From positions 1-37,129 of IMG/VR virus record IMGVR_UViG_2872174743_000010: 37,129 nucleotides of DNA; one strand, written 5' to 3'. Positions 2,421 through 25,095 of this stretch are shown here, in pieces (the first letter of the stretch is position 1; every line of letters begins with the position of its first letter). The notes under the pieces are model-generated. The model saw only the letters and a list, made by a program, of their open reading frames with translations. It made no database searches and was not told the DNA's origin. The position numbers were made by a program, and so were the translations under genes. The DNA is from a virus. Lineage: Duplodnaviria > Heunggongvirae > Uroviricota > Caudoviricetes.

Positions 2421-2442
2421 CGGTGATGAAAGGAAAGAGAAA

Positions 2443-4533: not shown

Positions 4534-4563
4534 AAATGTCATGGCCGGATTATAAAAACGGCC

Positions 4564-6449: not shown

Positions 6450-7577
6450 TTATTTGTGACATTGTGGTTGTTGTGCGACAGACATTGCTATTCGGCCCAT
6501 ATCCCAGATAAAACCCGCCAGCTCACGTGCAACAGCAACAATTGTAATATTGACATTCTTTCCTTTGGCCTGAAGTTTTCGATACCTCTTACAGAGCCTG
6601 AGTTGAGCATCCCATGCTCTGTCAATGACGGGGCGGGGTAAATTTTCCTGCCTTTTTTGTATTGCCGGACTGATGCGTGCCGGATGACGGTAACTCCACG
6701 CTGCCTCGACCAATAGCTTTCTGGCATAGCTGTTTCCGGCTTTGGTAATGCTGCCCTGATGTCTGCTTCCACCCGATGAATATTCTGATGGCGTGATACC
6801 AAACCATGACATCAGTTGTCGTGGATGTTCAAAACGGGTCAGATCACCCAGTTCAGAAATTAATCCAACCGCAGTAATAAACTGAATCCCTCGCATGGCT
6901 TGCAGCGCCTCTACTACCGGATACAGCCTCCATTCGGTAACGGCCTCCTTCAGGGCGGATTCCAGCCGTTCACATTGTGCCTGCCGGTCTTCTATTGTAC
7001 GACGGTGTTCGTCAAAAGCTAATTGTCGCCAGGGACTTTCGAATGAGTATTTGCTGAGCCAGCGTCGGTGTGCAGGGCCCCAATCTGCTCGCCCGACATA
7101 ATGGACCCCATGAACCAGAAGAAACGATTTCAGACGTTGCCTTGCATGCCGTAAATCATCGCGGGCAGATGCCCATGCCCGGGCCAAATCCCGGAATGCC
7201 TCATCTTCAATGCCGGGTACGTAGACAGCAGAAAGATCTCCTGCACGCAGTGAACGCACAAGTCTGATGGCATCACGGCGATCGGTTTTAACCCGCTCCC
7301 CCGGTTTTTTCGGGATAAGTGAGGGGGCGCAGACCATGCAGTCAAAACCGGATTTCACCAGCCGACGATAAAGTCCATAACCACAGGGCCCCGCTTCATA
7401 AACGATACTGACCTGCGATGACTTTGACCTGAGACGTTTACAAAGATTCTGAATATCAGTAGGTGATGTGCCAATTTTACCCATCAGTTCAACAGGTTCT
7501 GAATTGATAGCATAAGCGACAGTAATCGATTCTTTGTGAACATCTAACCCGACGTACAATGTGTTATTGTTGTTCAT
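6450..7577 (-). CDS. IS110-family transposase/recombinase (DEDD type)
   Basis: Start at the Met of MNNNNTLYVGLDVHKESITVAYA (GGAGG-like RBS upstream); N-terminal RuvC-like DEDD region and C-terminal ...GSITKAGNSYARKLLVEAAW... serine-bearing domain typical of IS110/IS1111 transposases. Confidence 0.85.
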   Translation of the reverse strand: MNNNNTLYVGLDVHKESITVAYAINSEPVELMGKIGTSPTDIQNLCKRLRSKSSQVSIVYEAGPCGYGLYRRLVKSGFDCMVCAPSLIPKKPGERVKTDRRDAIRLVRSLRAGDLSAVYVPGIEDEAFRDLARAWASARDDLRHARQRLKSFLLVHGVHYVGRADWGPAHRRWLSKYSFESPWRQLAFDEHRRTIEDRQAQCERLESALKEAVTEWRLYPVVEALQAMRGIQFITAVGLISELGDLTRFEHPRQLMSWFGITPSEYSSGGSRHQGSITKAGNSYARKLLVEAAWSYRHPARISPAIQKRQENLPRPVIDRAWDAQLRLCKRYRKLQAKGKNVNITIVAVARELAGFIWDMGRIAMSVAQQPQCHK

Positions 7578-7779
7578 GCTGGCCTCCGTGGTGGAAATAC
7601 CGGGGGGTAGCAACAGCTCACCCATGCGGCTCTGACAACGATGTTAACCCGCGTTAAATATCCCACGTTGGCCAGCATCTGTCTCACGGAAAGTCATACT
7701 GCCTTACGTATTTTGCACAGGAGTCGCTGATAAATACGCGTTAATCGAACAATGGCGACAACAATTTCCCATTGAAGCG

Positions 7780-8598
7780 ATGTGTCAGGTATTTGGTGTA
7801 TCCAGGAGCGGTTATTACAACTGGGTACAGCATGAACCCTCAGACAGAAAACAAAGTGATGAGCGGCTAAAACTGGAGATTAAGGTGGCACATATCCGCA
7901 CTCGCGAAACATATGGAACCCGGCGGCTCCAGACGGAGCTGGCAGAGAATGGCATCATCGTTGGTCGTGACCGACTGGCACGTCTTCGTAAGGAGCTAAG
8001 GCTACGCTGTAAGCAGAAACGCAAGTTCAGAGCGACTACGAACCCGAACCACAATCTGCCAGTTGCGCCAAATCTGCTGAACCAGACGTTCGCTCCTACA
8101 GCACCAAATCAGGTCTGGGTGGCGGACCTGACGTATGTTGCCACACAGGAGGGATGGTTGTACCTCGCTGGCATCAAAGATGTTTATACGTGCGAAATTG
8201 TCGGCTACGCCATGGGAGAGCGCATGACAAAAGAGCTGACAGGTAAAGCCCTGTTTATGGCGCTCAGGAGCCAGCGCCCACCTGCCGGGTTAATCCACCA
8301 CTCTGATCGAGGTTCACAGTACTGCGCATACGATTACCGGGTCATACAGGAGCAGTCTGGTCTGAAAACATCAATGTCGCGTAAAGGTAACTGTTACGAC
8401 AACGCTCCGATGGAAAGCTTCTGGGGAACGCTGAAAAATGAGAGCCTGAGCCACTATCGTTTTAATAACCGGGATGAAGCCATCTCAGTAATACGGGAAT
8501 ACATTGAGATTTTCTACAATCGTCAGCGTCGTCACTCTCGTCTGGGGAATATCTCCCCGGCAGCCTTCAGGGAAAAATATCATCAGATGGCTGCTTAA
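7780..8598 (+). CDS. IS600 OrfB (DDE catalytic part)
   Basis: MCQVFGVSRSGYYNWV...VWVADLTYV...HHSDRGSQYCA...NCYDNAPMESFWGTLKNE..., the IS3-family integrase core; the orfB frame is open upstream from about 7648, as expected for an OrfAB fusion. Confidence 0.85.
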   Translation: MCQVFGVSRSGYYNWVQHEPSDRKQSDERLKLEIKVAHIRTRETYGTRRLQTELAENGIIVGRDRLARLRKELRLRCKQKRKFRATTNPNHNLPVAPNLLNQTFAPTAPNQVWVADLTYVATQEGWLYLAGIKDVYTCEIVGYAMGERMTKELTGKALFMALRSQRPPAGLIHHSDRGSQYCAYDYRVIQEQSGLKTSMSRKGNCYDNAPMESFWGTLKNESLSHYRFNNRDEAISVIREYIEIFYNRQRRHSRLGNISPAAFREKYHQMAA

Positions 8599-9642: not shown

Positions 9643-10044
9643 GTGGGAACCAAAGTGTCAGATATGCAGAAAAATGTGAATCCCGGCAGGCGAAAAGGCT
9701 GCCCTAATTATCCTCCCGAATTTAAACAGCAGCTCGTTGCTGCCTCCTGTGAACCCGGGATATCCATCTCAAAACTTGCTCTTGAAAATGGCATTAACGC
9801 CAATCTGTTGTTCAAATGGCGACAACAATGGCGCGAGGGAAAGCTGCTATTACCTTCTTCAGAGAGCCCCCAGCTACTTCCTGTGACTCTCGATGCAGCT
9901 GCCGAACAGCCAGAATCGCTCGCAGAGGATCCGGAAACCCTCAGTATCAGCTGTGAGGTAACGTTCCGGCACGGGACGCTCCGCTTCAATGGCAATGTCA
10001 GCGAAAAGCTCCTGACTCTGCTGATACAGGAACTGAAGCGATGA
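9643..10044 (+). CDS. tnpA: IS66-family TnpA (copy 2)
   Basis: ...PEFKQQLVAASCEPGISISKLALENGINANLLFKWRQQWREG...; start uncertain (GTG at 9643 or ATG at 9664). Confidence 0.8.
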   Translation: MGTKVSDMQKNVNPGRRKGCPNYPPEFKQQLVAASCEPGISISKLALENGINANLLFKWRQQWREGKLLLPSSESPQLLPVTLDAAAEQPESLAEDPETLSISCEVTFRHGTLRFNGNVSEKLLTLLIQELKR

Positions 10045-10388
10045 TCCCGTTACCTTCCGGGACCAAAATTTGGCTGGTTGCCGGTATCACCGATATGAGA
10101 AATGGCTTCAACGGCCTGGCGGCAAAGGTGCAGACGACGCTGAAAGACGATCCGATGTCAGGTCACGTTTTTATCTTCCGTGGGCGTAATGGCAGTCAGG
10201 TAAAGCTCCTCTGGTCTACCGGCGATGGACTGTGTCTGCTGACCAAACGGCTGGAGCGCGGCCGCTTCGCCTGGCCGTCAGCCCGGGATGGCAAAGTGTT
10301 CCTCACACCGGCACAGCTGGCGATGCTCCTTGAAGGTATCGACTGGCGGCAGCCTAAAAGACTGCTTACGTCCCTGACTATGTTGTAA
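10041..10388 (+). CDS. tnpB: IS66-family TnpB (copy 2)
   Basis: MIPLPSGTKIWLVAGITDMRNGFNGLAAKV...; ATG overlaps the tnpA stop (ATGA). Confidence 0.85.
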   Translation: MIPLPSGTKIWLVAGITDMRNGFNGLAAKVQTTLKDDPMSGHVFIFRGRNGSQVKLLWSTGDGLCLLTKRLERGRFAWPSARDGKVFLTPAQLAMLLEGIDWRQPKRLLTSLTML

Positions 10389-10436
10389 GCCTCTTTATCC
10401 TGGTCGACGCTGAATGAGCCTGGTAATATACCCGGT

Positions 10437-11975
10437 ATGAGCAGCTCACTTCCTGACGATATCAATGCACTGAAACGTCTCCTTGCCGAACAGGAGGCGC
10501 TGAACCGTGCCCTGCTGGAAAAGCTGAACGAGCGTGAACGCGAAATAGACCATCTGCAGGCACAGCTGGATAAGCTGCGCCGGATGAACTTCGGCAGCCG
10601 CTCCGAAAAAGTCTCCCGTCGTATCGCACAGATGGAAGCTGACCTGAAGGCACTTCAGAAAGAAAGTGATACCCTTACCGGTCGGGTTGACGACCCGGCC
10701 GTGCAGCGCCCGCTGCGTCAAACCCGCACCCGCAAACCGTTCCCCGAATCACTCCCCCGCGATGAAAAACGGCTGCTGCCGGCAGCGTCATGCTGCCCGG
10801 AATGTGGAGGCTCACTGAGCTATCCGGGTGAGGATGCCGCCGAACAGCTGGAGTTGATGCGCAGCGTCTTCCGGGTTATCCGGACTGTACGTGAAAAGCA
10901 TGCCTGTACTCAGTGCGATGCCATCGTGCAGGCCCCCGCGCCTTCACGGCCCATCGAGCGGGGTATCGCAGGACCGGGGCTGCTGGCCCGCGTGCTGATC
11001 TCAAAGTATGCAGAGCACACCCCGCTGTACCGTCAGTCTGAAATGTACGGCCGCCAGGGCGTGGAGCTGAGTCGTTCACTGCTGTCGGGCTGGGTGGATG
11101 CATGCTGCCGGCTACTGTCACCGCTGGAAGAAGCGCTTCAGGATTATGTGCTGACTGACGGTAAGCTCCATGCTGATGACACGCCTGTCCCGGTGCTGTT
11201 GCCAGGCAATAAGAAAACGAAGACCGGGCGGTTATGGACCTACGTTCGTGACGACCGTAACGCCGGGTCAACGCTGGCGCCGGCGGTGTGGTTCGCTTAC
11301 AGCCCGGACAGAAAAGGCATCCATCCGCAGACCCATCTTGCGGGGTTCAGTGGTGTACTGCAGGCGGATGCATACGCCGGGTTCAACGAGCTGTACCGGG
11401 ATGGCCGGATAACGGAAGCCGCCTGTTGGGCTCACGCCCGCCGTAAAATCCACGATGTGCACGTTCGCACCCCGTCAGCCCTGACGGAGGAAGCGCTGAA
11501 ACGGATCGGCGAACTGTACGCCATCGAGGCAGAGATAAGGGGAATGACGGCGGAGCAGCGCCTTGCCGAACGTCAGTTGAAAACGAAACCGCTGCTGAAA
11601 TCCCTGGAAAGCTGGCTGCGTGAAAAGATGAAAACCCTGTCGCGACACTCAGAACTGGCGAAAGCGTTCGCATACGCCCTGAACCAGTGGCCGGCGCTGA
11701 CGTACTATGCAGATGATGGCTGGGCTGAGGCGGACAATAACATCGCTGAAAATGCGTTGCGGATGGTCAGTCTGGGCCGCAAAAACTACCTGTTCTTCGG
11801 TTCGGATCATGGAGGAGAGCGGGGAGCGCTGCTGTACAGCCTGATCGGGACGTGCAAACTGAACGGAGTGGAGCCAGAAAGCTACCTCCGCTATGTACTT
11901 GACGTCATAGCCGACTGGCCGATAAACCGGGTCGGCGAACTGCTCCCCTGGCGCGTAGCACTGCCGACTGAATAA
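10437..11975 (+). CDS. tnpC: IS66-family transposase TnpC (copy 2)
   Basis: 512 aa with the same motif set as copy 1 ([48 protein letters not shown]), but clearly diverged from it. Confidence 0.9.
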
Positions 11976-12012: not shown

Positions 12013-12910
12013 CATTGACGGGCGTGGTCTGGCTGGCGAGATCAGCAAGGAAACGGGTAAATCCCTGCGTGATAACGCTGAATACGTTAATCCCTGGGCG
12101 TCTCTGCATCGTGTTCAGCAATTCCGCTTCTTTGGTATTCCAGGGCGTCAGGCTTACCGTGAACTGCGGTTGTTGGCTGGTCAGGCGGCAAGGCAGCAGG
12201 GTGACAAAAAAGCAGGTGCGCCGGTACTGGATAACCCGCGCCTTGATGCCATCCTGGCTGCTGCTGATGCTGGCTGTTTTGCCACCTACATTATGAGGCA
12301 GGGCGGCGTGCTGGTTCCTCGCAAATATCACTTGATCAGAACCGCTTATGAAATCAATGAAGAGCCGACCGCCTATGGCGATCACGGTATTCGTATTTAT
12401 GGCATCTGGTCACCCATTGCAGAAGGCAAGATCTGCACTCATGCAGTGAAGTGGAAAATGGTTCGTAAAGCCGTTGACGTTCAGGAGGCGGCAGCCGACC
12501 AGGGCGCTTGCGCCCCTTGGACTCGTGGCAATAACTGTCCCCTTGCTGAAAATTTGAACCAACAGGAGAAAGATAAATCAGCTGATGGGAACCCCAGAAC
12601 GGACATTACCAGCATGGATGACAAGGAGTTGCACGATTACCTGCACAGTATGAGCAAAAAAGAGCGCCGGGAACTGGCAGCAAGGTTACGCCTGGTGAAA
12701 CCGAAACGGCGTAAAGACTACAAACAGCGAATTACAGACCATCAGCGACTGCAGCTCGTGTATGAGCTGAAGTCCAGAGGATTTGATGGCAGCGAGAAAG
12801 AGGTCGATTTACTCCTTCGCGGAGGCAGTATTCCGTCAGGAGCAGGCCTGCGTATCTTCTATCGGAACCAGCGTTTGCAGGAAGATGATCAGTGGCGGAA
12901 CCTGTATTAA
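12013..12910 (+). pseudogene. Phage replication protein fragment (P2 gpA-like C-terminal part), 5'-truncated by IS66 copy 2
   Basis: The reading frame is open from the first base after the IS66 end with no start codon ([17 protein letters not shown]...[13 protein letters not shown]... to stop at 12910); position and orientation fit the end of the P2/186 early operon. Identity to gpA is by context, not by recognised motif. Confidence 0.4.
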
Positions 12911-13002
12911 TTACGCGGGTTAACAATTCGTGCTCTTAATAATACCAGGCATATCAGGCTGATGAACGTAAAAAAACGTTTTACATCAGTAAGATTATCA
13001 TA

Positions 13003-13022
13003 TACTGTAAATATAAACAGTG
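13003..13022 (+). promoter_or_regulatory. LexA (SOS) box overlapping a -10-like hexamer
   Basis: TACTGTAAATATAAACAGTG is CTGT-N8-ACAG with an AT-rich spacer, a near-consensus LexA operator; TATACT immediately overlaps it; about 40 nt upstream of the first gene of the pair. Confidence 0.6.
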
Positions 13023-13063
13023 GTTATGCATGCAGTATTGCGTGTGGTGTCATAGGAGGAAAG

Positions 13064-13252
13064 ATGCAGGACTATTTTTTGGAGTCTTTGAAGCTCCAGC
13101 GCATTGATTTTTTTCTTAAGCTTGTAGCGGCTAGTGAGTGTAGTGATGAAGAGAAGGGGCTGGCTCTGCAGTGGGTTTCTGAATTGACTGATGAACTCAT
13201 GGCAAAAATCAGAACCCACGAATACAACCGCTCAATGGATGTCATCAGCTGA
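13064..13252 (+). CDS. Small protein, first gene of the LexA-controlled pair (possible Tum-like antirepressor part)
   Basis: 62 aa from the Met preceded by AGGAGG: MQDYFLESLKLQRIDFFLKLVAASECSDEEKGLALQWVSELTDELMAKIRTHEYNRSMDVIS; no motif recognised. Confidence 0.45.
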   Translation: MQDYFLESLKLQRIDFFLKLVAASECSDEEKGLALQWVSELTDELMAKIRTHEYNRSMDVIS

Positions 13253-13262
13253 GGTGACTTTT

Positions 13263-13496
13263 ATGCGCATTGAAATAATGATCGATAAAGAGCAGAAGAT
13301 TAGCCAGTCTACCCTGGACGCTCTTGAATCCGAGCTTTACCGCAATCTGCGCCCTCTGTATCCCAAAACGGTAATTCGTATCCGCAAAGGTAGCTCTAAC
13401 GGTGTGGAACTTACCGGATTGCAACTGGACGAAGAAAGAAAACAAGTGATGAAAATTATGCAGAAGGTGTGGGAAGACGACAGCTGGCTGCATTAA
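13263..13496 (+). CDS. DinI-like protein
   Basis: MRIEIMIDKEQKISQSTLDALESELYRNLRPLYPKTVIRIRKGSSNGVELTGLQLDEERKQVMKIMQKVWEDDSWLH, with the DinI pattern (MRIE..., ...WEDD.W); GAGGTGA upstream. Confidence 0.75.
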   Translation: MRIEIMIDKEQKISQSTLDALESELYRNLRPLYPKTVIRIRKGSSNGVELTGLQLDEERKQVMKIMQKVWEDDSWLH

Positions 13497-13631
13497 GAAA
13501 CGTTGCTGGCGTCTGAACTAGCTTCTGGCGTCAGCAAGGTTGAACAACGAGCCCTTGCGAGGCGTTAGCTCTGTAGTGCATGTCTATGCCGCATGAGATC
13601 GCATGATCGTTTGAGGATCGTTTTTGCTAAG

Positions 13632-13656
13632 GCCCGCCAGAACTGGCGGGCTTTTG
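13632..13656 (+). terminator. Intrinsic terminator candidate after the DinI-like gene
   Basis: GCCCGCCAG-AA-CTGGCGGGC followed by TTTTGCG. Confidence 0.5.
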
Positions 13657-13700
13657 CGTAGATCATGCAGGTGCATGAAAACCACTACATAAAGCGGGCA

Positions 13701-13719
13701 GGCGTGGCGGGGATACGAT
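13701..13719. other. cos-like site (19 nt)
   Basis: GGCGTGGCGGGGATACGAT; the first 13 nt and last 2 match the cohesive-end sequence of 186 as remembered (GGCGTGGCGGGGAAAGCAT), about 16 of 19; lies between the early and late blocks. Confidence 0.35.
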
Positions 13720-13788
13720 TGCGCGCTAGGTATAAGTGTGTAAAATAATTCCAAAATAAATCATCACTAATGAAGTGAGAGGGTAATA

Positions 13789-15438
13789 ATGTTAGTCAAG
13801 AAAAATAAAAATTATAGTTTATATTTTTTAATTACAAATAATCAACAGATATCTGATTCTGGTAATTATATAAAAATAGTCCCATCAAGAAGCGATTGGA
13901 ATGATTTTGGATATTTGAGTAGAGTCGAAATATCTATTTTTAATAAAAAAGAGTGTAAGGATATAATTTCACTGAATGGTTATATTGGTTTTTTGAATTC
14001 AGAGGAGGAACGAAATGGAAAAGCAGAACTGATAAGGCGAGTGAAAAAAAAGGAAGAATCTAATTTAAAGGATGAGGGGTTTAATGATTATTTTGTCATG
14101 CTTCAGGATATGAATAATTATCGAAGACTAGTAAGATTTTTTGGGGTGAATGAATCCAAATATATATTAAATTTCATTAATGATGTTGTTTCTAAGAAAA
14201 GTGACGCTAGTGCAGAGAATTTGAGGAAAAAAGCAATCTCTTCTGATATCTTTAATAAATCTTTCATTAGAGAGTCTGAGTCGTATTTTACTTTCAAAAA
14301 TGCAGGAACAGTTCTTTCCGGTATTCAATATGAGGAGTTGGGTAATTTATCACAGCACATCAAGATTAGCTATTCGAATAAAGTTAATGAAGAAGATGTA
14401 TCTTATGTTTTTAATTTTGATCACGAGCATGATTTACCAAAAAGAATTTCCATAATTATAGGCGAGAATGGTGTAGGAAAAAGCCAAACGCTTAGAGAAA
14501 TCGCATTGGCTGCGATTAAAGGAAAGGATAATTTGGTGGCTGTAGTTGATTCTAACGGTGTGAGCATTGAAGAACGAATTCAAATTAGTAGGCTCATTGC
14601 TTTTTCTCCAACAAATGAAAGTAAGTGTTCATTTCCAACCGATAAAAGAATAAAATCATTGATATGGTACAAAAGATTGACTTTAAATCGTGAATCAAAA
14701 TCCAAATTAAACTTGAATGATTTAATAGTGCAACTAGCGAGGAGTAACGACGCTATCGGCTATAATCAAAGGTGGAATATATTTGTTGATGCACTGAGTG
14801 TTCTAAATAGTAACAACGATTTAGTAATCAAATGTGGCGGTGAAAATTCACCATTTGTTAAATTAAATGAGCTTAATTCTCGAGGCGAAGAATCTAGACT
14901 ATCATTATATTCTGAAATTATTCTCTCTGGCGAGCCTTTGAGGCTTATTGAAAATAAATGTTACCCTTTGAGTAGTGGGGAAATATCGTTTATTAAGTTT
15001 TGTGTACAAGTTTGTTTGTATATTGAGAATGGGACTCTTCTATTAATAGATGAGCCAGAAACACATCTCCATCCTTCATTTATTAATAAATTTATGGCAT
15101 TGCTTGATAATTTATTAGAAAAGACAGGCTCTTCAGCTATCATAGCAACGCATTCGGTTTATCTTGTTCGGGAGGTTTTTAAGGAGCAAGTGACAATACT
15201 CAGAAGACGAGATGATGGGGTAATTGTTAGCGAAAAACCGAGATTGAGTACTTTTGGGGCGAATATAGGAAATATCTCATATTTTGTTTTCGGTGAGAGT
15301 GAACCAACTCAAATTTTAAATAAAGTAAAAAACAATATAATTGCAAAGAATATGTCTTGGGATGATGTTGAATCTAAATATAGCGAGGACTTATCACTTA
15401 ATGTATTAACTGCGTTGAGAAATGAAATGGGCAATTGA
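13789..15438 (+). CDS. ABC-type ATPase (AAA_21/AAA_15-like), Septu PtuA-like, with a ~215 aa N-terminal extension
   Basis: 549 aa; Walker A GENGVGKS (aa 225-232, nt 14461-14484), signature-like YPLSSGE (about aa 393-399), Walker B LLLIDEPE (aa 417-424), H-loop-like IIATHS (about aa 451-456); very AT-rich; GAGAGGG RBS. Confidence 0.7.
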   Translation: MLVKKNKNYSLYFLITNNQQISDSGNYIKIVPSRSDWNDFGYLSRVEISIFNKKECKDIISLNGYIGFLNSEEERNGKAELIRRVKKKEESNLKDEGFNDYFVMLQDMNNYRRLVRFFGVNESKYILNFINDVVSKKSDASAENLRKKAISSDIFNKSFIRESESYFTFKNAGTVLSGIQYEELGNLSQHIKISYSNKVNEEDVSYVFNFDHEHDLPKRISIIIGENGVGKSQTLREIALAAIKGKDNLVAVVDSNGVSIEERIQISRLIAFSPTNESKCSFPTDKRIKSLIWYKRLTLNRESKSKLNLNDLIVQLARSNDAIGYNQRWNIFVDALSVLNSNNDLVIKCGGENSPFVKLNELNSRGEESRLSLYSEIILSGEPLRLIENKCYPLSSGEISFIKFCVQVCLYIENGTLLLIDEPETHLHPSFINKFMALLDNLLEKTGSSAIIATHSVYLVREVFKEQVTILRRRDDGVIVSEKPRLSTFGANIGNISYFVFGESEPTQILNKVKNNIIAKNMSWDDVESKYSEDLSLNVLTALRNEMGN

Positions 15439-16303
15439 AATGAATAAATTAAAAAGACCTGTTTTTAAAGATTATTCTGCATTTAAAAAACTATCTGCAA
15501 ATAAGAGATTAAAACATCATTCTGTTCTGAATGGACAGGATACATTTATACTTAATGCATATAGATCGTACATAAAGAATAAAGGGTATCTTAATGTCAA
15601 TTCTTGTGGCGTATTGAGTAACAATATTGCTGAAGCTTTGAGATATTATTATAACAATCCCGCAAAGTGTTTATCTATAATTGATGATATAAGAGCAGCT
15701 AATTCTAACTCTCTATGTCCAATGTGTGGTTCAATGCATAGCGGGACTTTGGATCATGTTTTACCCAAGGAAAACTATCCAGAATTTTCTTTATTCACTA
15801 AGAATTTGGTTCCTGCTTGCAAATGTAATACTTTCAAAAGTACTACTATAGCTAATTCTGCAGGCCATCGGATGCTGCATCCATATTTTGATAATATATT
15901 AAAACAAAGATTAATATGTGCTAATTTTTCTAAATTAGGGCGAACACCTACAATTGATGTAAAAATCATAATTGACCCAATGTCACCAGAATATAACAAT
16001 GTTAAGTATCATCTTGATAATGTTGTTATCAAGAATAATATTAAGGGGTATTTGTCTGAACAATGGGAGTCGTTTTACTTATATCCTGAGCTTGTTATTA
16101 GAGGACTGAATAAGAGTCTTTCTACTTATAGCGATGTATATGAGTTGTTGACTCGCGAGTTGTTGCTGTTGGATGAAAAACATAAAGGTAAAAATAATTG
16201 GAATTCGGTTTTTGTAGCTGGGTTAATTCGACCTGATGTGATTAGGTGGATACTCTGTGAATTACATTTAGGTAACAGAAGTCCAGACGGTCGTCTCATA
16301 TGA
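15422..16303 (+). CDS. HNH endonuclease, Septu PtuB-like
   Basis: 293 aa; HNH core CPMCGSMHSGTLDHVLPKENYPEFSLFTKNLVPACKCN (aa 99-136); start overlaps the upstream stop by 17 nt (a second in-frame ATG sits 1 nt after the stop). Confidence 0.7.
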   Translation: MKWAIEMNKLKRPVFKDYSAFKKLSANKRLKHHSVLNGQDTFILNAYRSYIKNKGYLNVNSCGVLSNNIAEALRYYYNNPAKCLSIIDDIRAANSNSLCPMCGSMHSGTLDHVLPKENYPEFSLFTKNLVPACKCNTFKSTTIANSAGHRMLHPYFDNILKQRLICANFSKLGRTPTIDVKIIIDPMSPEYNNVKYHLDNVVIKNNIKGYLSEQWESFYLYPELVIRGLNKSLSTYSDVYELLTRELLLLDEKHKGKNNWNSVFVAGLIRPDVIRWILCELHLGNRSPDGRLI

Positions 16304-16410
16304 TTTTTTGCATCTTCAGCGTGTATCTGCACGCTGAAGAAATTCATAAAAACTGCTGCCTATTAATAAATTTTTTTAGCTGAGTTAAAGAACCTCATTT
16401 AGTGATTACG

Positions 16411-17445
16411 TTAAGTAGCTAGTTTATAACTATCAAATTTAACAATGTTATCACTTACCAATTTATTTATTTCCATCATTCTTTTTTGTAACGGTATTAA
16501 CTCGTTACGTACAAACACCAGGCTCGCCTTCTCCACATCCCCAAACCCCCCGACATTATTAGGCATAATCCCCATCATTTGCGGTGGCACACGATGCGCC
16601 GCCATCATGTCATCCCGGCTCACGTTCTTGATGTTCAGAAACTCATCCTTCGCCGCGACTTCTGACAACGGGATGATCTGAAGCCCGTCCTTTTTGCCGT
16701 TAGGCGAGTACATAAACAGATTGCGGAAGTTACCTGGTCCTTTGGCGCTTTTCATCGCATTGCGGAGGTTGTTCACATCCTCCTGGTTTTGCGCGGCATC
16801 GGTCATGTACATGATGAAGCCTGCATGACTGCCGTTAATGTAATACTATCGGCGGAACAGCGTGGCGGACTCGTTGAGCAGGGCTGACGGAATGGCAGAA
16901 AGGTAACCTGGCAGGCCGTAGATCTCTTGGTTGATGTCCGGTTCCATCAGATGAAAGATGCTTCCTTTCGTGAACTGATACGGCTGCGTGGTCATGCCGT
17001 ATTGCACAAACCAGTAGGTATCCAGGTCTAATCCGCGTCGGGTGTATTTTGCCAGAGCAGGCTCAAGAGCGATGACCTCTCCGAACCGGTTTGTGCGTTT
17101 CTCCAGGTAAGCGTTACCAAATACCAGATAATCCTGCACAAAACGTGAAAAAGCCTGCTGGCTGAGCAGCGGGTGAGGGATGTAGGTACTGATCAGAATG
17201 TTGCATTTCACCGCAATTGGTGAACTGTGATGCACGGCGGCGCGGAAGGTGCGCGCCAGTCCGTCAAAACTCACTGGCGGCTCATACCAGCGATCTGTCT
17301 GTACGCATTCCACATAGTCCAGTAGTTCACGGCGGTCCAGAACCGGAACGGGATCGCCGAAGCTGAATGCTTCGGCTGAAGTCTGGTTTTTATGCTGGGT
17401 CTGTTTCGTCGCCGCAGCGCGGTTCTTCTTACTCTTTCCCATCAA
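16411..17445 (-). pseudogene. Q: Portal protein (P2 gpQ-like) interrupted by an in-frame TAG
   Basis: Track ORFs 16846..17445 and 16411..16812 are in the same frame; protein reads ...ATLFRR-stop-YYINGSHAGFIMYMTDAAQ...; the TAG is at 16846-16848 on the minus strand. Confidence 0.8.
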
Positions 17446-19208
17446 AAAATCTCCACAATATTGCTGGTATTGGCGGACTCGCCCTGCAGCGGTTCGTTAA
17501 ACAGTGCGTGCATTGTTGCCCAGGCCAGATCGGCATGGCTGGCTTCTTCGCTGCGGCTGGCTTCATAGGTCGGGCGGTTGCCGCTGGCGGTGGTGGCGCG
17601 ACGGATTGCCATGAATGACTGCGCAATGTCGGTGTGCCCGGCGTCAAACTCAAGACGGCGGTGGCTGATAATGTCGTAGGCCTTGAGTACCAGGGCGTTT
17701 TTAACGTTGGGGTTGTAGACAAACTCCCGGACGGCAGGAAAAAACGCTTTCACGTTCTCGTAAACCCCGTGACCAACGCCGGTTGAGTCGATGCCGATAT
17801 AGGTCACGTTGTACTGTTCAGTCAGTTTTTTGATGGCGTAAGCCTGGGCGCGAAAGTCCATTCCGCGCCACTGGTGACGCTCAAGAATGCGGAACTTACC
17901 GCCTGGCACGGCTGGCGGTGCCACCACCACGCATCCGGCGCTGTCGCCGTTCTGCGTACCTTTTGCCGGGTCATAACCGATCCACACTTCGCGCCAGCCA
18001 AACGGGCGCAGGGCCAGTGCATGAAAGTCGGTCCAGACTTCCCAGCTGTCCACCATGCACGCCTGCAATTCGCTGAGCGGGAACACGGACGCGAGATCGT
18101 CCACGAACTCGCACATCAGCAGGTTCTGGTATTCGTCAGGGCTGTACTCCATGCGCAACTGGTCAAGGTCGAACAGGTTACAGGCGCCGCGCACCGCATC
18201 TTCCACGGTGACTATCTGGCGGTATTGCCCGTCTGCGCACAGCAGGCCGGGGGCCAGATTGCTGTGGGACAGGTCGATGTCCACCTTGTCAGCTTTGTTG
18301 CGCCCACGGTTGAACAGCGCACCGGACCAGAACGGATAAGCACTGTGGGTCAGACTGGATGGTGTGGAAAAATAGGTCTGCCGCCATTTCTTGTGAATAG
18401 CCATACCAGAAGCCACTTTGCGTAGCTCCTGAAATTTCGGTATCCAGAAATATTCATCCAGATACAGGTTACCGTGATAACTCTGGGCAGTGCGGGCATT
18501 GGTGCCGAGGAAATACAGTGTGGCCCCGTTGGGAAGCACCATCGGATCGCCTTTCAGCTCCACCTCCACTTCTTTGGCAAAGTCGATGATGTACTGTTTG
18601 AAGACGTGGGCCTGTGCCTTACTGGCAGAAAGGAAAATCTGGTTACGTCCGGTAAGCAGGGCGTCAATCAGGGCTTCACGGGCAAAATAGAAGGTCGCGC
18701 CGATCTGGCGTGACTTCAGCAGGTTGCGGATGCGGTTGGTTTTTCCGGCTTCCCACCAGTGGCGCTGGTAGTTGAACATGGAGGAATGGAAATTTTTTTC
18801 CAGCTTCTCAATCTGGTCATCGGTGAAAACATTCTTTTCAGGCTGACGGCGTGGGCCTTTGTTGCGGTTGGCGACGTTAGGGTTTAAGTCGGCTTCGTTG
18901 CCGCCATTGTTAAACTTGCCGATCCGCGCGTGGCGCTCAGACTGGCGCGCCAGCAGGTCAATATCTTTGAAATCTTTCCCTTCTTTGTGCTCCTTCATGA
19001 TGAGCTGGCAGTAGCGTGCGGCGGTGGTGAGCTGCATCTGATCCAGAGGCCCATAGTCACCCCACTTGTCGCGTTTTTTCCAGCTGTAAACGGTTGCAAC
19101 TTTCTCGCCCAGCATTTCAGCAATGCGGGCTACGCGGTATCCCTGAAAGTACAGCAGCATGGCCTGCCGACGGGGATCGAGATCTGCGGGTGTCAGTGTG
19201 GTGTTCAT
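17442..19208 (-). CDS. P: Terminase large (ATPase) subunit, P2 gpP-like
   Basis: 588 aa; collinear with P2 gpP as remembered; start overlaps the portal gene. Confidence 0.9.
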   Translation of the reverse strand: MNTTLTPADLDPRRQAMLLYFQGYRVARIAEMLGEKVATVYSWKKRDKWGDYGPLDQMQLTTAARYCQLIMKEHKEGKDFKDIDLLARQSERHARIGKFNNGGNEADLNPNVANRNKGPRRQPEKNVFTDDQIEKLEKNFHSSMFNYQRHWWEAGKTNRIRNLLKSRQIGATFYFAREALIDALLTGRNQIFLSASKAQAHVFKQYIIDFAKEVEVELKGDPMVLPNGATLYFLGTNARTAQSYHGNLYLDEYFWIPKFQELRKVASGMAIHKKWRQTYFSTPSSLTHSAYPFWSGALFNRGRNKADKVDIDLSHSNLAPGLLCADGQYRQIVTVEDAVRGACNLFDLDQLRMEYSPDEYQNLLMCEFVDDLASVFPLSELQACMVDSWEVWTDFHALALRPFGWREVWIGYDPAKGTQNGDSAGCVVVAPPAVPGGKFRILERHQWRGMDFRAQAYAIKKLTEQYNVTYIGIDSTGVGHGVYENVKAFFPAVREFVYNPNVKNALVLKAYDIISHRRLEFDAGHTDIAQSFMAIRRATTASGNRPTYEASRSEEASHADLAWATMHALFNEPLQGESANTSNIVEIF

Positions 19209-19254
19209 GGCACAAACCTACAGCCTTGAATGAAGGCTTTCCCCGCCTGCGGTT

Positions 19255-19272
19255 TGTGTGGTTGTCGGTACA
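19255..19272. promoter_or_regulatory. TGT-N12-ACA element in the divergent P/O promoter region (Ogr/B-type late activator site)
   Basis: TGTGTGGTTGTCGGTACA in the 142-bp spacer between the divergent terminase and scaffold genes. Confidence 0.4.
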
Positions 19273-19350
19273 AATACCGCGCATTGTTTCACTGCCCCTA
19301 TCACCGCAACCATAAGGCTCCAGTAAGTTTTTTCTAACGGAGCACGGCTC

Positions 19351-20184
19351 ATGACAGTGAAAGCAAAGCGTTTTCGCATCGGGGTGGAAGGTGCCACCAC
19401 CGACGGACGCGAAATCCAGCGTGAATGGCTGGAACAGATGGCAGCCAGCTATAACCCGGCGGTGTATACCGCGCTGATTAACCTTGAGCACATCAAGTCT
19501 TATCTGCCGGACAGCACCTTTAACCGCTACGGCAAGGTGACGGCGCTGTTTGCTGAAGAAATCACGGAAGGTCCGCTGGCAGGCAAGATGGCGCTGTATG
19601 CTGACGTTGAGCCAACGGAGTCCCTGGTGGAACTGGTGAAAAAAGGCCAGAAATTATTCACCTCTATGGAAGTCAGCCCGAAGTTCGCTGATACGGGCAA
19701 AGCCTACCTGGTCGGCCTGGCTGCCACTGATGACCCTGCCAGTCTGGGCACTGAAATGCTGACATTCAGCGCCAGTGCAGCCCATAACCCGCTGGCAAAC
19801 CGCAAGCAGAATCCCGCCAATCTCTTTACCGCCGCAGAGGAAACGGTGATCGAACTGGAAGAAGTCCAGGACGACAAACCGTCCCTGTTTGCCCGCGTCA
19901 CGGCGCTGTTTACCAAAAAAGAGCAGTCCGATGACGCCCGGTTCTCTGATGTGCATAAGGCCGTGGAGCTGGTCGCCACTGAGCAGCAGAACCTGAGCGC
20001 ACGCACCGAAAAATCCCTGTCTGAGCAGGAAGAACGCCTGTCTGAGCTGGAGACTGCCCTGCAGGCACAGCAAACCGCCTTTAACGAACTGGTGGACAAG
20101 CTGAGTCATGAAGACAGCCGCCAGGACTACCGCCAGCGTGCAACAGGCGGTAACGCCCCCGCTGACACTCTGACCAATTGCTGA
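19351..20184 (+). CDS. O: Capsid scaffolding protein, P2 gpO-like
   Basis: 277 aa, MTVKAKRFRIGVEGATTDGREIQREWL..., acidic coiled-coil C-terminus; synteny P-O-N. Confidence 0.85.
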   Translation: MTVKAKRFRIGVEGATTDGREIQREWLEQMAASYNPAVYTALINLEHIKSYLPDSTFNRYGKVTALFAEEITEGPLAGKMALYADVEPTESLVELVKKGQKLFTSMEVSPKFADTGKAYLVGLAATDDPASLGTEMLTFSASAAHNPLANRKQNPANLFTAAEETVIELEEVQDDKPSLFARVTALFTKKEQSDDARFSDVHKAVELVATEQQNLSARTEKSLSEQEERLSELETALQAQQTAFNELVDKLSHEDSRQDYRQRATGGNAPADTLTNC

Positions 20185-20200
20185 TGGAGCACAAAACCTG

Positions 20201-21259
20201 ATGAAGAAGAATACCCGCTTTGCTTTTAACGCTTACCTGCAGCAACTGGCGCGTCTGAACGGTGTGGCAGTTGAAGAACTGTCCAGCAAGTTCACCGTAG
20301 AGCCGTCCGTGCAGCAGACGCTGGAAGACCAGATCCAGCAGTCCGCCGCTTTCCTGACTCTGATTAACGTCACGCCAGTGACTGAGCAGTCCGGTCAGCT
20401 GCTGGGGTTGGGAGTTGGCAGCACCATTGCCGGAACCACTGATACCACTGCGAAAGAGCGTGAACCTGTCGATCCGACGCTGATGGTCGATGTGGAATAT
20501 AAATGCGAGCAGACCAACTTTGACACGGTGCTGACCTACGCGAAGCTGGACCTGTGGGCGAAGTTTCAGGATTTTCAGGTGCGTATCCGTGACGCCATCG
20601 TGAAACGTCAGGCACTGGACCGCATCATGATCGGCTTTAATGGCGTGAAGCGTGCGAAAACCTCCAACCGTAGCGAAAACCCGCTGCTGCAGGATGTGAA
20701 TAAAGGCTGGCTGCAGAAAATCCGTGAGGATGCACCGGATCACGTCATGGGCAGCACCACCACGGGCGGTGAAACCACACCGGGCGCAGTGAAAGTCGGG
20801 AAAGGTGGCGAATATGCCAACCTGGACGCCGTGGTGATGGATGCCGTCAATGAGCTTATCGACGTGGTCTACCAGGACGATGACGATCTGGTGGTGATTT
20901 GCGGTCGTGAACTGCTGTCTGACAAGTATTTCCCGCTGGTCAACAAAGAGCAGGAAAACAGTGAAAAACTGGCTGCCGATATGATCATCAGTCAGAAACG
21001 CATGGGTGGCCTGCAGGCCGTGCGTGCGCCGTTCTTCCCGCCGAATGCGCTGCTGATCACCCGTCTGGATAACCTGTCCATCTACTGGCAGGAAGACACC
21101 CGCCGCCGTTCAGTTATCGACAACCCGAAACGTGACCGGATTGAAAACTTTGAATCCGTTAACGAAGCCTATGTGGTTGAGGACTACCGCTGCGCCGCAC
21201 TGGTGGAAAACATCCAGATTAGTGATTTCAGCGCCGCCGCAGCCGAAACCGGAGCGTAA
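20201..21259 (+). CDS. N: Major capsid protein, P2 gpN-like
   Basis: 352 aa; ...TRFAFNAYLQQLARLNGV...KFTVEPSVQQTL...IMIGFNGVKRAKTS...VKVGKGGEYANLDAVVMDA..., highly similar to P2 N as remembered. Confidence 0.9.
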   Translation: MKKNTRFAFNAYLQQLARLNGVAVEELSSKFTVEPSVQQTLEDQIQQSAAFLTLINVTPVTEQSGQLLGLGVGSTIAGTTDTTAKEREPVDPTLMVDVEYKCEQTNFDTVLTYAKLDLWAKFQDFQVRIRDAIVKRQALDRIMIGFNGVKRAKTSNRSENPLLQDVNKGWLQKIREDAPDHVMGSTTTGGETTPGAVKVGKGGEYANLDAVVMDAVNELIDVVYQDDDDLVVICGRELLSDKYFPLVNKEQENSEKLAADMIISQKRMGGLQAVRAPFFPPNALLITRLDNLSIYWQEDTRRRSVIDNPKRDRIENFESVNEAYVVEDYRCAALVENIQISDFSAAAAETGA

Positions 21260-21262
21260 TCC

Positions 21263-21913
21263 ATGAGCCTGAGTCCCGCACGGCAGCATCGCCTGCGCGT
21301 TCAGGCTGAACAGGCCGCCCGTGAGGGTGGCAGTGTTCGCCACGCATCGGGCTATGACCTGATGCTGCTGCAACTGGCGGAAGACCGCCGCCGTCTCAAG
21401 GGCGTTCAGTCCACGGTCAAAAAAGCGGAAATCAAAGTGGAGCTGCTGCCGAAGTACGCCGCCTGGGCGGAGGGTGTCCTGGCTGCCGGAGGCGCTCAAC
21501 AGGATGACGTGCTGATGTACGTGATGTTGTGGCGCATTGATGCCGGAGATTATGCCGGGGCGCTGGAGATCTGGCGTCATGCCCTGCGTCATGGATGGGT
21601 GATGCCGCTGGGCAACCGCAACGTGCAGACCGTGCTGACAGAGGAAATGGCAGATGCAGCGCAGAGCGCAATGCTTGCCGCCACCGGCTTTGATGCCGAT
21701 CTGTTGCTGCAGACGCTGGAGCTGACAGACGGTCTGGATATGCCGGACCAGTCACGGGCACGTCTGCATAAAGCGATTGGCGCGGTCCTGAGTGAAAGCA
21801 ATCCGGCTTCCGCCCTTAATCATCTCAACCATGCGTTACAGCTCGATCCCCGCTGTGGCGTGAAAAAAGACAAACAGCAGCTGGAGCGCAGACTGCGCAA
21901 TGACAGCCGCTGA
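21263..21913 (+). CDS. M: Terminase small (endonuclease) subunit, P2 gpM-like
   Basis: 216 aa directly after N; synteny and size. Confidence 0.75.
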   Translation: MSLSPARQHRLRVQAEQAAREGGSVRHASGYDLMLLQLAEDRRRLKGVQSTVKKAEIKVELLPKYAAWAEGVLAAGGAQQDDVLMYVMLWRIDAGDYAGALEIWRHALRHGWVMPLGNRNVQTVLTEEMADAAQSAMLAATGFDADLLLQTLELTDGLDMPDQSRARLHKAIGAVLSESNPASALNHLNHALQLDPRCGVKKDKQQLERRLRNDSR

Positions 21914-22008
21914 CAGAACGTGCCCCCGCGCACGGGCGGCACGGGGTGGCGAAAGGCACAGCCACATCAAAACCCCGTCCACCGCCCTTTATTTCAGGAG
22001 AAAGCAGC

Positions 22009-22455
22009 ATGAAGTTTGTTGCGCCAGAACAGGCACCGGAACAGGCGGAAATCATTAGAAATACGCCGTTCTGGCCTGATGTGGACCTGTCGGAGTTTCG
22101 CAGTGTCATGCGCACTGACGGCACGGTGACGCAGCCGCGTTTAAAGTAGGTTGCACTGTCGGCAATTTCGGAGGTTAACGCAGAGCTGTATGAATTTCGC
22201 AGACGCCAGCAGATGCTGGGGTATGCGTCGGAACAGCTGGACGGGAAAAGTGAGCGCATTCAGCACTATTTCAACGCGGTTTACTGCTGGGCTCGCGCCA
22301 TGCTCAACGAACGTTTCCAGGACTATGACGCCACGGCATCCGGTGCGAAGCGGGGCGAAGAACTGGCGGAAGCAAGCGGTGATTTGTGGCGTGACGCCCG
22401 CTGGGCCATCAGCCGGGTGCAGGACGCGCCGCACTGCACAGTGGAGCTTATCTGA
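22009..22455 (+). pseudogene. L: Head completion protein (P2 gpL-like) interrupted by an in-frame TAG
   Basis: MKFVAPEQAPEQAEIIRNTPFWPDVDL...TQPRLK-stop(TAG 22147-22149)-VALSAISEVNAELYEFRRRQQMLGYASEQ...; the two parts share one frame and together align with gpL. Confidence 0.75.
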
Positions 22456-22658
22456 TGAAAGTGCGTGCGCATCAGTATGACACGGTGGACGCGCTTTGCT
22501 GGCGTCATTACGGGCGCACGCAGGGTGTCACGGAGCAGGTACTGAAGGCAAATCCGGGGCTTGCCGAATACGGCCCCTTTGTACCTCACGGGCTGCAGGT
22601 GGAGCTGCCGGACATTCCGACCACCACCACCGTGCAGACCGTCCAGCTATGGGACTGA
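22455..22658 (+). CDS. X: Tail protein X (P2 gpX-like)
   Basis: 67 aa, MKVRAHQYDTVDALCWRHYGRT...; ATG overlaps the gpL stop. Confidence 0.8.
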   Translation: MKVRAHQYDTVDALCWRHYGRTQGVTEQVLKANPGLAEYGPFVPHGLQVELPDIPTTTTVQTVQLWD

Positions 22659-22661
22659 ATT

Positions 22662-22877
22662 ATGACGCTTGAGCGAATCAGCGCCTTTATCACGTATTGC
22701 ATCGCCGTCGTGCTGGCCTGGCTGGGCGATTTGTCCATCAAGGATGCCTCAACGCTGGGCGGCCTGATGATTGGTGTGCTGATGCTGGCTATCAACTGGT
22801 ACTACAAACACAAAGCCTACCAGCTTCTGCGCGACGGGCAGATCTCGCGGGAGGACTATGAATCCATCAATCGTTAA
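22662..22877 (+). CDS. Holin (small, two predicted TM helices)
   Basis: 71 aa, hydrophobic segments ISAFITYCIAVVLAWLG and LGGLMIGVLMLAINWYY, charged C-terminus; immediately upstream of the endolysin. Confidence 0.6.
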   Translation: MTLERISAFITYCIAVVLAWLGDLSIKDASTLGGLMIGVLMLAINWYYKHKAYQLLRDGQISREDYESINR

Positions 22878-23370
22878 ACGCTGCCTTGTCGGGGCCGTGC
22901 TGGCTATTGCTGCCACGCTGCCGGGTTTTCAGCAGCTTCACACCTCCGTGGAGGGACTGAAACTGATTGCCGATTACGAAGGTTGTCGTCTGCAGCCGTA
23001 TCAGTGCAGCGCGGGTGTCTGGACCGACGGTATTGGTAATACGTCGGGCGTCATTCCCGGCAAAACCATTACGGAGCGACAGGCAGCAGAAGGGCTGATC
23101 TCCAACGTGCTGCGTGTGGAGCGGGCGCTTGAAAGGTGTGTGAAGCAACAGCCGCCGCAGAAGGTGTATGACGCTGCGGTGTCGTTTGCCTTCAACGTGG
23201 GTACGGGCAATGCCTGCAGTTCCACGCTGGTGAAATTGCTCAATCAGCGGCGCTGGGCGGATGCGTGCCGACAGTTGCCGCGCTGGGTTTATGTGAAAGG
23301 TGTTTTTAATCAGGGGCTGGATAACCGCCGTGCGCGGGAGATGGCCTGGTGTTTACAGGGAGCAAACTGA
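22858..23370 (+). CDS. Endolysin (lysozyme), probably with an N-terminal signal-anchor-release segment
   Basis: 170 aa; N-terminal KRCLVGAVLAIAATLPGF followed by a lysozyme-like domain (...EGCRLQPYQCSAGVWTDGIGNT...). Confidence 0.8.
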   Translation: MNPSIVKRCLVGAVLAIAATLPGFQQLHTSVEGLKLIADYEGCRLQPYQCSAGVWTDGIGNTSGVIPGKTITERQAAEGLISNVLRVERALERCVKQQPPQKVYDAAVSFAFNVGTGNACSSTLVKLLNQRRWADACRQLPRWVYVKGVFNQGLDNRRAREMAWCLQGAN

Positions 23371-23371
23371 A

Positions 23372-23749
23372 ATGAAAAAGAAATTAATCAGCGGGCTGTT
23401 TCTGATGTTATGGATGGCGCTGTTAATCGCAGCAATAGTGTATCCGCAGGGGATTTTTCCGGTACTGGCAGCGTCCGGCGTTTGGGTAGCCTGTTTACTG
23501 ACATGGGCGGTAATTCCGGTAGCACTGGCTTCGTTAATTAAGAATGGCCCGCTCTGGCAGGAGTTGAGGGCATCTTTACTGAAGACAATTACCCGAAAAG
23601 AAAACGTATTTATCAGCTGGGTGATACGATTGCTGATTGTCGTCAGTCTCGCCTGGACGGGGTGGGCCATTACCCTGGTCTTTTATCTGCTGACCGTTAT
23701 TGCCTTCTGGATCACCCGTAATCAGATGGCGCAACAGGTAGCCGCATGA
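23372..23749 (+). CDS. LysA-like membrane protein
   Basis: From the Met at 23372: MKKKLISGLFLMLWMALLIAAIVYP..., with several TM segments; sits in the P2 lysA position. Confidence 0.5.
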   Translation: MKKKLISGLFLMLWMALLIAAIVYPQGIFPVLAASGVWVACLLTWAVIPVALASLIKNGPLWQELRASLLKTITRKENVFISWVIRLLIVVSLAWTGWAITLVFYLLTVIAFWITRNQMAQQVAA

Positions 23750-24174
23750 ACCGGTTGCTGCTGGTTGTGCTGGCGTTATTATTGGCGGCGCTGGGCTGGC
23801 AGACGTGGCGGCTGGCTGATGCCAGCCAGACCATCAGCACGCAGGCAGACGAGCTGCAGAGCAAAAGCCAGGCACTGGCAAAGAGCAACAGCCAGCTTAT
23901 CAGCCTGTCCATTCTGACTGAAACCAATAACCGGGAGCAGGCGCGGCTCTATGCCGAAGCAGAACAGACCAGTGTACTGCTGAGACAACGACAACGCCGG
24001 ATTGAGGAACTGAAACGTGAGAACGAGGATTTACGTCGCTGGGCTGATACTCCTTTGCCTGCTGACATTATCCGGCTGCGGGAACGTCCGGCACTCACCG
24101 GAGGTGCAGCTTACCGTCAGTGGTTGTCCGCGAGTGACGCCGTGTCGGCTGGAGCAGGCAGCGCCGCGCACTAA
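23746..24174 (+). CDS. LysB-like inner-membrane spanin
   Basis: 142 aa, N-terminal TM (LLLVVLALLLAALGW) then coiled-coil; P2 lysB position. Confidence 0.65.
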   Translation: MNRLLLVVLALLLAALGWQTWRLADASQTISTQADELQSKSQALAKSNSQLISLSILTETNNREQARLYAEAEQTSVLLRQRQRRIEELKRENEDLRRWADTPLPADIIRLRERPALTGGAAYRQWLSASDAVSAGAGSAAH

Positions 24175-24307
24175 CGGTGATCTGAATGCGTTGCTGGATG
24201 AAACGGAGGCCGCCTGGGCGGTCTGTGCAGACAAAGTGGACATGATTATTGCGTGTCAGGAGCGAAATAGTGAACAAACCACAATCCCTGCGCCACGCCC
24301 TCAATAA
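24017..24307 (+). CDS. LysC-like outer-membrane spanin lipoprotein, embedded out of frame in lysB
   Basis: Lipobox LTLSGC followed by a proline-rich short protein; overlapping +1 frame within and beyond lysB, as in P2 lysC. Confidence 0.55.
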   Translation: MRTRIYVAGLILLCLLTLSGCGNVRHSPEVQLTVSGCPRVTPCRLEQAAPRTNGDLNALLDETEAAWAVCADKVDMIIACQERNSEQTTIPAPRPQ

Positions 24308-24701: not shown

Positions 24702-25095
24702 ATTGCAGAAGGTGGACGACTGGCTGAGTGCATTATTGGCGAATCTGGAGCCAGCCGCAAGAAGCCGCATGATGCGCCAGCTGGCGCAGGAACTGCGCCG
24801 GACACAGCAGCAGAACATCAGGATGCAGCGCAATCCAGATGGCAGCAGTTATGAGCCGCGCAGGGTAACAGCACGCAGCAAAAAGGGGCGCATCAAACGT
24901 CAGATGTTTACAAAGCTGCGCACCACAAAATACCTGAAAACTGCAGCCAGCGCCGATTCTGCCAGCGTACAGTTTGAAGGTAGGGTGCAGCGCATTGCCC
25001 GTATTCACCATTACGGCTTGAGTGATCGCGTCAGTCGAAAAGGTATTTATACCATCTATGCGAAAAGGCAGTTATTAGGTTTTAATGTCCGGTAA
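24694..25095 (+). pseudogene. S: Tail completion protein S (P2 gpS-like), C-terminus cut by IS1
   Basis: 133 aa frame runs into the IS1 left end (stop supplied by GGTAATGC); P2 gpS is longer as remembered. Confidence 0.65.

Follow-up and report, generated by a model that had tools for sequence, protein, structure and literature searches.

We analyzed a 37,129-nucleotide stretch of viral DNA (IMG/VR record IMGVR_UViG_2872174743_000010, positions 1 to 37,129; here called the window), in which a defective prophage related to phages P2 and 186 carries a two-gene cassette. Gene 1 encodes an ATPase with the motifs of the ATP-binding cassette (ABC) type, and gene 2 encodes a predicted HNH nuclease (Table 1). 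A reading of the letters alone, made without database searches (the original prediction), had placed two tightly coupled open reading frames (ORFs) here, both on the plus strand, and they lie where it put them. For gene 2, that reading had used an alternative ATG at 15422, which gives a product of 293 amino acids and a 17-nucleotide overlap with gene 1. The start at 15440, 1 nucleotide beyond the gene 1 stop codon (which ends at 15438), is the RefSeq choice for the E. coli orthologs, and most gene 2 homologs open with MNK at this position. With either start, the two genes are translationally close.

An AT-rich cargo segment beside cos

The cassette forms a sharply AT-rich island, as had been noticed from the sequence. 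G+C content is 0.316 to 0.338 over positions 14001 to 16500, compared with 0.53 to 0.59 to the right and 0.44 to 0.54 to the left. The order of genes in the window is gpA fragment, DinI-like gene, cos, cassette, and portal gene, in agreement with the predicted location between a cos-like site and the portal gene. The cohesive-end 19-mer shares 16 of its 19 bases with the cos annotated in phage 186, the TGCGCGC that follows it also matches, and the site is conserved in related E. coli prophages that carry different cargo. Homology to these prophages ends at 13727 to 13731 and resumes at 16426 to 16484. Hence, the cargo consists of the 2.7 kb from cos to the portal stop codon.

An intact P2/186-like prophage of E. 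coli UPEC-245U shares 99.6% identity with positions 12013 to 25090 of the window; its gene order is integrase, CI, CII, Fil, Dam, replication endonuclease, DinI-like protein, AAA ATPase, HNH endonuclease, portal, terminase, and capsid. The conserved flank is found in 1,224 complete E. coli records, of which three have the cassette. A comparison of the slot among related prophages, proposed with the original prediction, showed that the cargo differs: E. coli prophages L007 and L008 have a hypothetical gene paired with a HIRAN gene, or a gene for a DUF262 protein. In phages 186 and P2, the interval between cos and the portal gene is only ~170 bp. The slot corresponds to the published gpA-gpQ hotspot (PMC9122126, PMC9519451, PMC13586616). 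The original prediction had equated it with the tin/old position of P2, which is correct insofar as the hotspot is shared; however, P2 has tin and old on the gpA side, whereas the cassette lies on the portal side of cos. We conclude that the cassette is accessory cargo of a 186-like prophage, immediately on the portal side of cos, and that the prophage is defective in the window. The cassette lies beside cos, leftmost in the packaged genome, a location that could bear on the exchange of cargo between P2-like phages.

Table 1. Positions of the cassette, its protein motifs, and the borders of the cargo slot
Feature	Position	Strand	Basis or detail
Gene 1, PtuA-like ABC-type ATPase, 549 amino acids	13789..15438	+	PADLOC PDC-M01A; phrog_8066
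Family-specific N-terminal domain, ~190 amino acids, beta-rich and then helical part	13789..14358	+	Profile searches
ABC ATPase catalytic motifs	14461..15156	+	Translation; alignment of 49 sequences
Walker A, GENGVGKS	14461-14484	+	Translation
Signature, LSSGE	14968-14982	+	Translation
Walker B/D-loop, LLLIDEPE	15037-15060	+	Translation
H-loop, ATHS	15145-15156	+	Translation
Gene 2, PtuB-like HNH nuclease (predicted), 287 amino acids	15440..16303	+	PADLOC PDC-M01B; phrog_18937
HNH (beta-beta-alpha-metal) core with Cys pairs	15716..15883	+	C93-x2-C96, D105-H106, N122, C127-x-C129-N130, H147 (287-residue numbering)
cos site, cohesive-end 19-mer GGCGTGGCGGGGATACGAT	13701..13719		Left edge of cargo slot
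Variable cargo segment, AT-rich island	13730..16425		Between cos and 3′ end of portal gene
Perfect 11-bp inverted repeat (hairpin)	16313..16340		Read from sequence; between convergent gene 2 and portal gene
Portal gene (gpQ/W homolog), right border of slot	16411..17445	-	TAG nonsense codon at 16846-16848

The ATPase and the nuclease

The original prediction had read a complete ABC-type motif set in gene 1. All the quoted motifs are at the expected places, and the residues of Walker A, the signature, Walker B, and the H-loop are invariant or nearly so in an alignment of 49 homologs that share 37 to 82% identity with the window proteins; the Walker A lysine was correctly numbered K231. Profile searches that had been proposed as a check agreed. 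Gene 1 passed the Pfam thresholds for AAA_21 (60.8 bits; cutoff, 27; E = 3e-16) and AAA_15 (35.3 bits; cutoff, 32.1; E = 1e-8). Its best PADLOC match was PDC-M01A (E = 3.2e-55, residues 27 to 539 of 549), followed by the full-length PtuA model PDLC00282 (E = 1e-31, residues 32 to 535) and many other PtuA models. Matches to AriA, OLD, and ATPase-Toprim models were weak, and the score for the NCBIfam PtuA equivalog was 41 bits (cutoff, 500). We then have the predicted structure: an AlphaFold model of the single chain (predicted local distance difference test [pLDDT], 79.9) was compared with the PDB using Foldseek, and the best 38 matches were exclusively PtuA chains, from Septu or from type I-A retrons (E = 3e-9 to 5e-7). 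PDB sequence searches with the single protein and with family profiles returned generic ABC ATPases (UvrA, EF3, and AriA), with PtuA at E = 0.0017 to 0.0004; such searches gave no help in placing gene 1 or gene 2 in a family. Taken together, the motifs, profiles, and predicted fold indicate that gene 1 encodes an ABC-type ATPase related specifically to PtuA.

The cassette, its family, and its slot are already published. Table S5B of Rousset et al. 2022 (PMC9122126) lists the same protein sequences in the same slot as P2-hotspot system #155, with 12 occurrences among the P2-like loci analyzed; gene 2 is identical there, and gene 1 has N125 both there and in the UPEC strain, compared with Y125 in the window. 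The table labels system #155 NLR-like, with a domain string that includes NB-ARC, which would make the pair a STAND NTPase sensor with a nuclease effector. Gene 1 does have Pfam matches to NACHT, nSTAND3, and nSTAND_NTPase5 (E = 0.007 to 0.015), but they cover only the P-loop (residues ~214 to 262) and all fall below the cutoff (for NACHT, 16.6 bits versus 26.7). Moreover, gene 1 has an invariant LSSGE, a Walker B with D-loop, and an H-loop, which STAND NTPases do not have; AAA_21 and AAA_15 are above threshold, and the fold search yields only ABC ATPases (PtuA, Rad50, and ABC transporters). These motif and fold data contradict the NLR-like label, which is not supported; we regard that reading as largely refuted and its probability as close to negligible. 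The published label would accordingly be corrected to a PtuA/PtuB-type pair of ABC ATPase and HNH protein.

The ATPase domain of gene 1 is preceded by a domain that canonical PtuA does not have and that has no match in Pfam. In PADLOC it is recognized by the PDC-M01A models alone, and no profile outside the ATPase family of gene 1 matches it. The domain is present in 150 cluster representatives, mostly at the N terminus of proteins of ~530 to 580 amino acids, and the gene 1 alignment has a conserved WNDFG motif within it. Two rare relatives, P0299 (812 amino acids) and P0341 (705 amino acids), have an extra AbiJ_NTD3 or DUF4062 domain N-terminal to the family-specific domain, which suggests that sensor domains are exchanged as modules among these ATPases.

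Gene 2 has the canonical HNH core that had been predicted. Its motif, CPMCGS...LDHVLP...NLVPACKCN, spans positions 15716 to 15829, and the HNH and Cys residues are all invariant among 48 homologs in the same identity range; the predicted catalytic-core histidine, H112, is right in the 293-residue numbering and equals H106 in the 287-residue numbering. The best PADLOC match was PDC-M01B (E = 1.2e-33, residues 8 to 270 of 293). With the HNH core alone, the 25 PADLOC matches listed were all PDC-M01B, and gene 2 also matched phrog_10378, an "HNH endonuclease" (E = 2.7e-22). The Pfam HNH search that had been suggested as a further check did not succeed: no Pfam HNH family matched gene 2, matches in its relatives were marginal (E of at least 0.0015, in 4 of 48), and neither the TIGR02646 nor the Pfam profiles made PtuB recognizable. 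Sequence searches of the PDB returned spurious S100-A9 matches and a marginal HNH match, 4h9d (E = 0.11). In the AlphaFold model of the single chain (pLDDT, 88.8), the predicted fold matches PtuB as a whole, beyond the HNH core. We conclude that gene 2 encodes an HNH nuclease with a predicted PtuB fold, the PtuB half of the assignment resting on predicted structure.

P2 old, Gabija GajA, and PARIS AriA have ATPases of the same broad ABC clade as gene 1, and P2 old occupies the same hotspot. However, the nuclease of OLD, Gabija, and PARIS is of the Toprim or DUF4435 type, whereas the nuclease of the cassette is a separate HNH protein with a predicted PtuB fold. Gene 2 had no Toprim match. We therefore rejected an OLD/PARIS-type reading.

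Conservation of the pair and its probable assignment to Septu

We examined 79 loci with a relative of gene 1, from Proteobacteria, Bacteroidota, Verrucomicrobiota, Actinomycetota, Myxococcota, and other groups. In 77 of them, the next gene downstream, on the same strand, is a relative of gene 2; the other two end at a contig edge, so the pair is kept in all 77 informative loci. A Citrobacter 186-like prophage has an orthologous pair, 79% identical, in the same slot. Compared with this ortholog, the ratio of nonsynonymous to synonymous substitution rates (dN/dS) comes to ~0.09 in gene 1 and ~0.11 in gene 2, values that are approximate given that dS is near saturation. These ratios indicate that both genes are under purifying selection.

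More distant pairs are found in integrative and conjugative elements adjoining integrases, with genes for HipA, ScoMcrA-type HNH proteins, or RES toxins nearby, and also beside a type III restriction system. The position of gene 2 next to cos and to the portal and terminase genes raises an explanation unrelated to defense, in which it would be a phage-function HNH protein (helping the terminase in packaging, as in HK97-like cos phages), part of a selfish addiction module, or a homing endonuclease. HNH proteins beside terminase genes aid cos cleavage in some phages. However, 1,221 of the 1,224 E. coli records with the conserved flank have no cassette, P2 and 186 have almost no room between cos and the portal gene, and homologs occur in integrative elements and defense neighborhoods without any terminase. 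The HNH gene invariably comes together with the ABC ATPase gene, and the match to PtuB covers the whole predicted fold rather than the HNH core alone. On these grounds we rejected the packaging helper and consider the nondefense explanations as a group highly improbable.

In PADLOC, the proteins also belong to a known candidate system, PDC-M01: they match PDC-M01A and PDC-M01B and are adjacent, and the best PADLOC calls are PDC-M01 rather than Septu. PDC-M01 is one of 145 candidates that were picked out through "guilt by embedding," from their location inside BREX, DISARM, or type I restriction loci (Payne et al. 2024 preprint, 10.1101/2024.01.29.577857). That origin allows the pair to be read as an accessory to restriction, BREX, or DISARM systems that is active only in their company; in the window it would be an inactive orphan. 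Gene 1 partially matches TIGR04435, "restriction system-associated AAA family ATPase" (E = 1.3e-20; 73.6 bits; cutoff, 300), and a Variovorax homolog adjoins a type III restriction system. However, no restriction genes accompany the pair in the window or in E. coli, Citrobacter, and Salmonella, where it stands alone, either next to an integrase or in the slot from cos to the portal gene; the conserved unit across the informative loci is the pair itself; and Septu, its structural relative, functions as a stand-alone pair. We judge an accessory role of this kind to be improbable.

Instead, we consider it likely, from profiles, predicted folds, and analogy with known systems, that the cassette is a two-gene Septu-type anti-phage module of a divergent branch, PDC-M01. 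The proposal that an ATPase plus an HNH protein represents the Septu (PtuA/PtuB) architecture was thus largely right, given the PtuA models and the 38 top Foldseek matches for gene 1 and the predicted PtuB fold for gene 2. In an independent survey of the Bacillus cereus group, pairs called PDC-M01 by PADLOC were called Septu by DefenseFinder. The layout is that of type I Septu, with adjacent, co-oriented genes and the ATPase first. Type I Septu (E. coli PtuAB, PDB 8ee4/8ee7/8eea; Septu EcB88) likewise has an ABC ATPase gene with complete motifs upstream of an HNH gene, is found on mobile elements, and has no reverse transcriptase. The His-Asn spacing is 16 residues both in gene 2 (H106/N122) and in the PtuB of Septu EcB88 (H75/N91, experimentally mutated). 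We found no reverse transcriptase gene, no Rfam RNA, and no further ORF with homologs in the slot; in this the cassette differs from the effectors of type I-A retrons (Ec78/Eco7/Ec83 PtuA-PtuB), which are accompanied by a reverse transcriptase gene and noncoding RNA. In addition, retron PtuA is extended at its N terminus by a short reverse transcriptase-binding helix (PMC12819146), as opposed to the ~190-residue domain of gene 1.

Several observations weigh against the Septu assignment. The Walker A lysine is K231 in gene 1 but K43 in Septu EcB88, owing to the extra N-terminal ~190 residues, and the distance from Walker A to Walker B is 190 residues, compared with 273 in canonical PtuA. With this extension, ~188 residues relative to canonical PtuA, and the shorter distance, the oligomeric state, trigger, and target may differ from those of canonical PtuA. 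Sequence similarity between gene 1 and PtuA 8ee4 is low (E = 0.0017) and limited to the C-terminal part, and gene 2, at 287 amino acids, is 50 to 75 residues longer than the solved PtuBs (210 to 234 amino acids). Foldseek template modeling (TM) scores for gene 1 were low (0.25 to 0.38), as would be expected given variable inserts in the protein, and Rad50 and ABC transporters ranked close behind PtuA, a modest margin. For gene 2, the Foldseek match was weak (E = 0.45), a hidden Markov model search of the PDB returned no solved PtuB, and the PtuB profile TIGR02646 did not match significantly (E = 0.075; cutoff, 52 bits); among the 48 members of the gene 2 family, 4 matched this profile, at E = 0.015 or worse. 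A promoter and terminator consensus scan of positions 13200 to 16500 found sites no more numerous than in shuffled sequence and no convincing promoter 5′ of gene 1; a weak TTGCGC-16-TAAAAT overlapping cos was spotted by eye, and we do not claim it as a promoter. Lastly, system #155 is absent from the table of evaluated systems (PMC9122126), and we found no experimental report of defense activity for the family of this gene pair in the literature.

Stand-alone Septu depends on both the PtuA Walker motifs and the PtuB HNH motif; on infection it cleaves tRNA-Tyr in the variable loop, and at high multiplicity of infection it slows growth (PMC13096335). In vitro, PtuAB complexes nick DNA, and nicking by stand-alone Septu drops as ATP rises (PMC12819146). 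By analogy with Septu and retron PtuAB, we infer a function in defense for the cassette. The gene 1 ATPase would oligomerize and hold the HNH subunit in an inactive complex, and infection would lift this restraint, either by a change in nucleotide state or through a phage protein. Nucleic acid would then be cut by the HNH subunit, the published targets being tRNA-Tyr in vivo and DNA, by nicking, in vitro. Such cleavage would halt phage replication, with growth arrest as the price when the multiplicity of infection is high. Within gene 1, the N-terminal domain would be the most likely site of trigger recognition or regulation, and the analysis flags this structurally distinct Septu branch as a candidate for experiments. 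That the domain is a previously undescribed phage-sensing or substrate-selecting module, marking a mechanistically distinct branch, seems to us unlikely; if true, the branch would differ from canonical PtuAB in its trigger, oligomeric state, or nucleic-acid target.

The surrounding prophage

Between gene 2 and the portal gene lies a hairpin (Table 1) that is possibly a transcription stop; neither strand has a T-run there. On the other side of the cassette, 3′ of the DinI-like gene and 5′ of cos, positions 13633 to 13658 form a GC-rich hairpin followed by TTTT (GCCCGCCAG-aac-CTGGCGGGC-TTTTG). It is absent from the list produced by the consensus scan. From its sequence it looks like an intrinsic terminator, which would insulate the cassette from upstream transcription.

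The prophage is decayed on both sides of the slot. An IS66-family insertion sequence (IS) element truncates its replication gene at 12013, and the portal gene has a stop codon in place of the K codon of the intact E. coli ortholog. Compared with the UPEC-245U prophage, the head-completion gene (22009 to 22452) has an in-frame stop, and the virion morphogenesis gene (24694 to 25089) is shortened; the segment from 12013 to 25090 is 18 nucleotides shorter overall. The baseplate genes and most tail-fiber genes are missing, with an IS1 at the site of the deletion. We conclude that the prophage is unable to make particles. The exact gene 1 protein is listed in 1,221 index blocks, representing very many assemblies, CP000036.1 among them; in several loci with this protein, the portal gene is also called in two pieces. 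The gene 2 product is 100% identical to one named from Shigella dysenteriae. These records and the number of IS elements suggest that the window derives from Shigella.

The original prediction had stated that both cassette genes are intact, unlike most of the prophage. The first part holds, but 13 of the 17 other prophage genes in positions 12013 to 25090 are intact too. Intactness is weak evidence of selection because the prophage is only 0.4% diverged from its intact UPEC-245U relative; we rejected it for this purpose and used dN/dS instead. The window adds a case of a decayed prophage of the Shigella type in which an accessory module has stayed intact.

A heavy IS load is typical of Shigella genomes. 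In the window, IS elements are dense at positions 3767 to 6156, 6450 to 7625, 7780 to 8598, 9643 to 11975, and 25146 to 25843, and they comprise two IS66-family copies, an IS110-family transposase, an IS3-type rve transposase, and IS1. The IS66 copy at 9643 to 11975 has HTH_Tnp_1, TnpB_IS66, and DDE_Tnp_IS66 ORFs; the copy ending near 12012 is the one that cuts the prophage replication gene.

At positions 25859 to 26353 is a C-terminal fragment of a tail-fiber gene, inverted relative to the UPEC prophage and located beside an intact gene for a serine recombinase (Cin/Gin-like invertase; 26418 to 26984). The fragment and the invertase are probably the remnant of an invertible tail-fiber switch. 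Upstream of the IS cluster, positions 1259 to 3283 contain an HTH_3 repressor-like ORF and a Rha/Ash-family regulator. This region is unlike the left arm of the UPEC prophage, and the regulators may belong to another prophage remnant.

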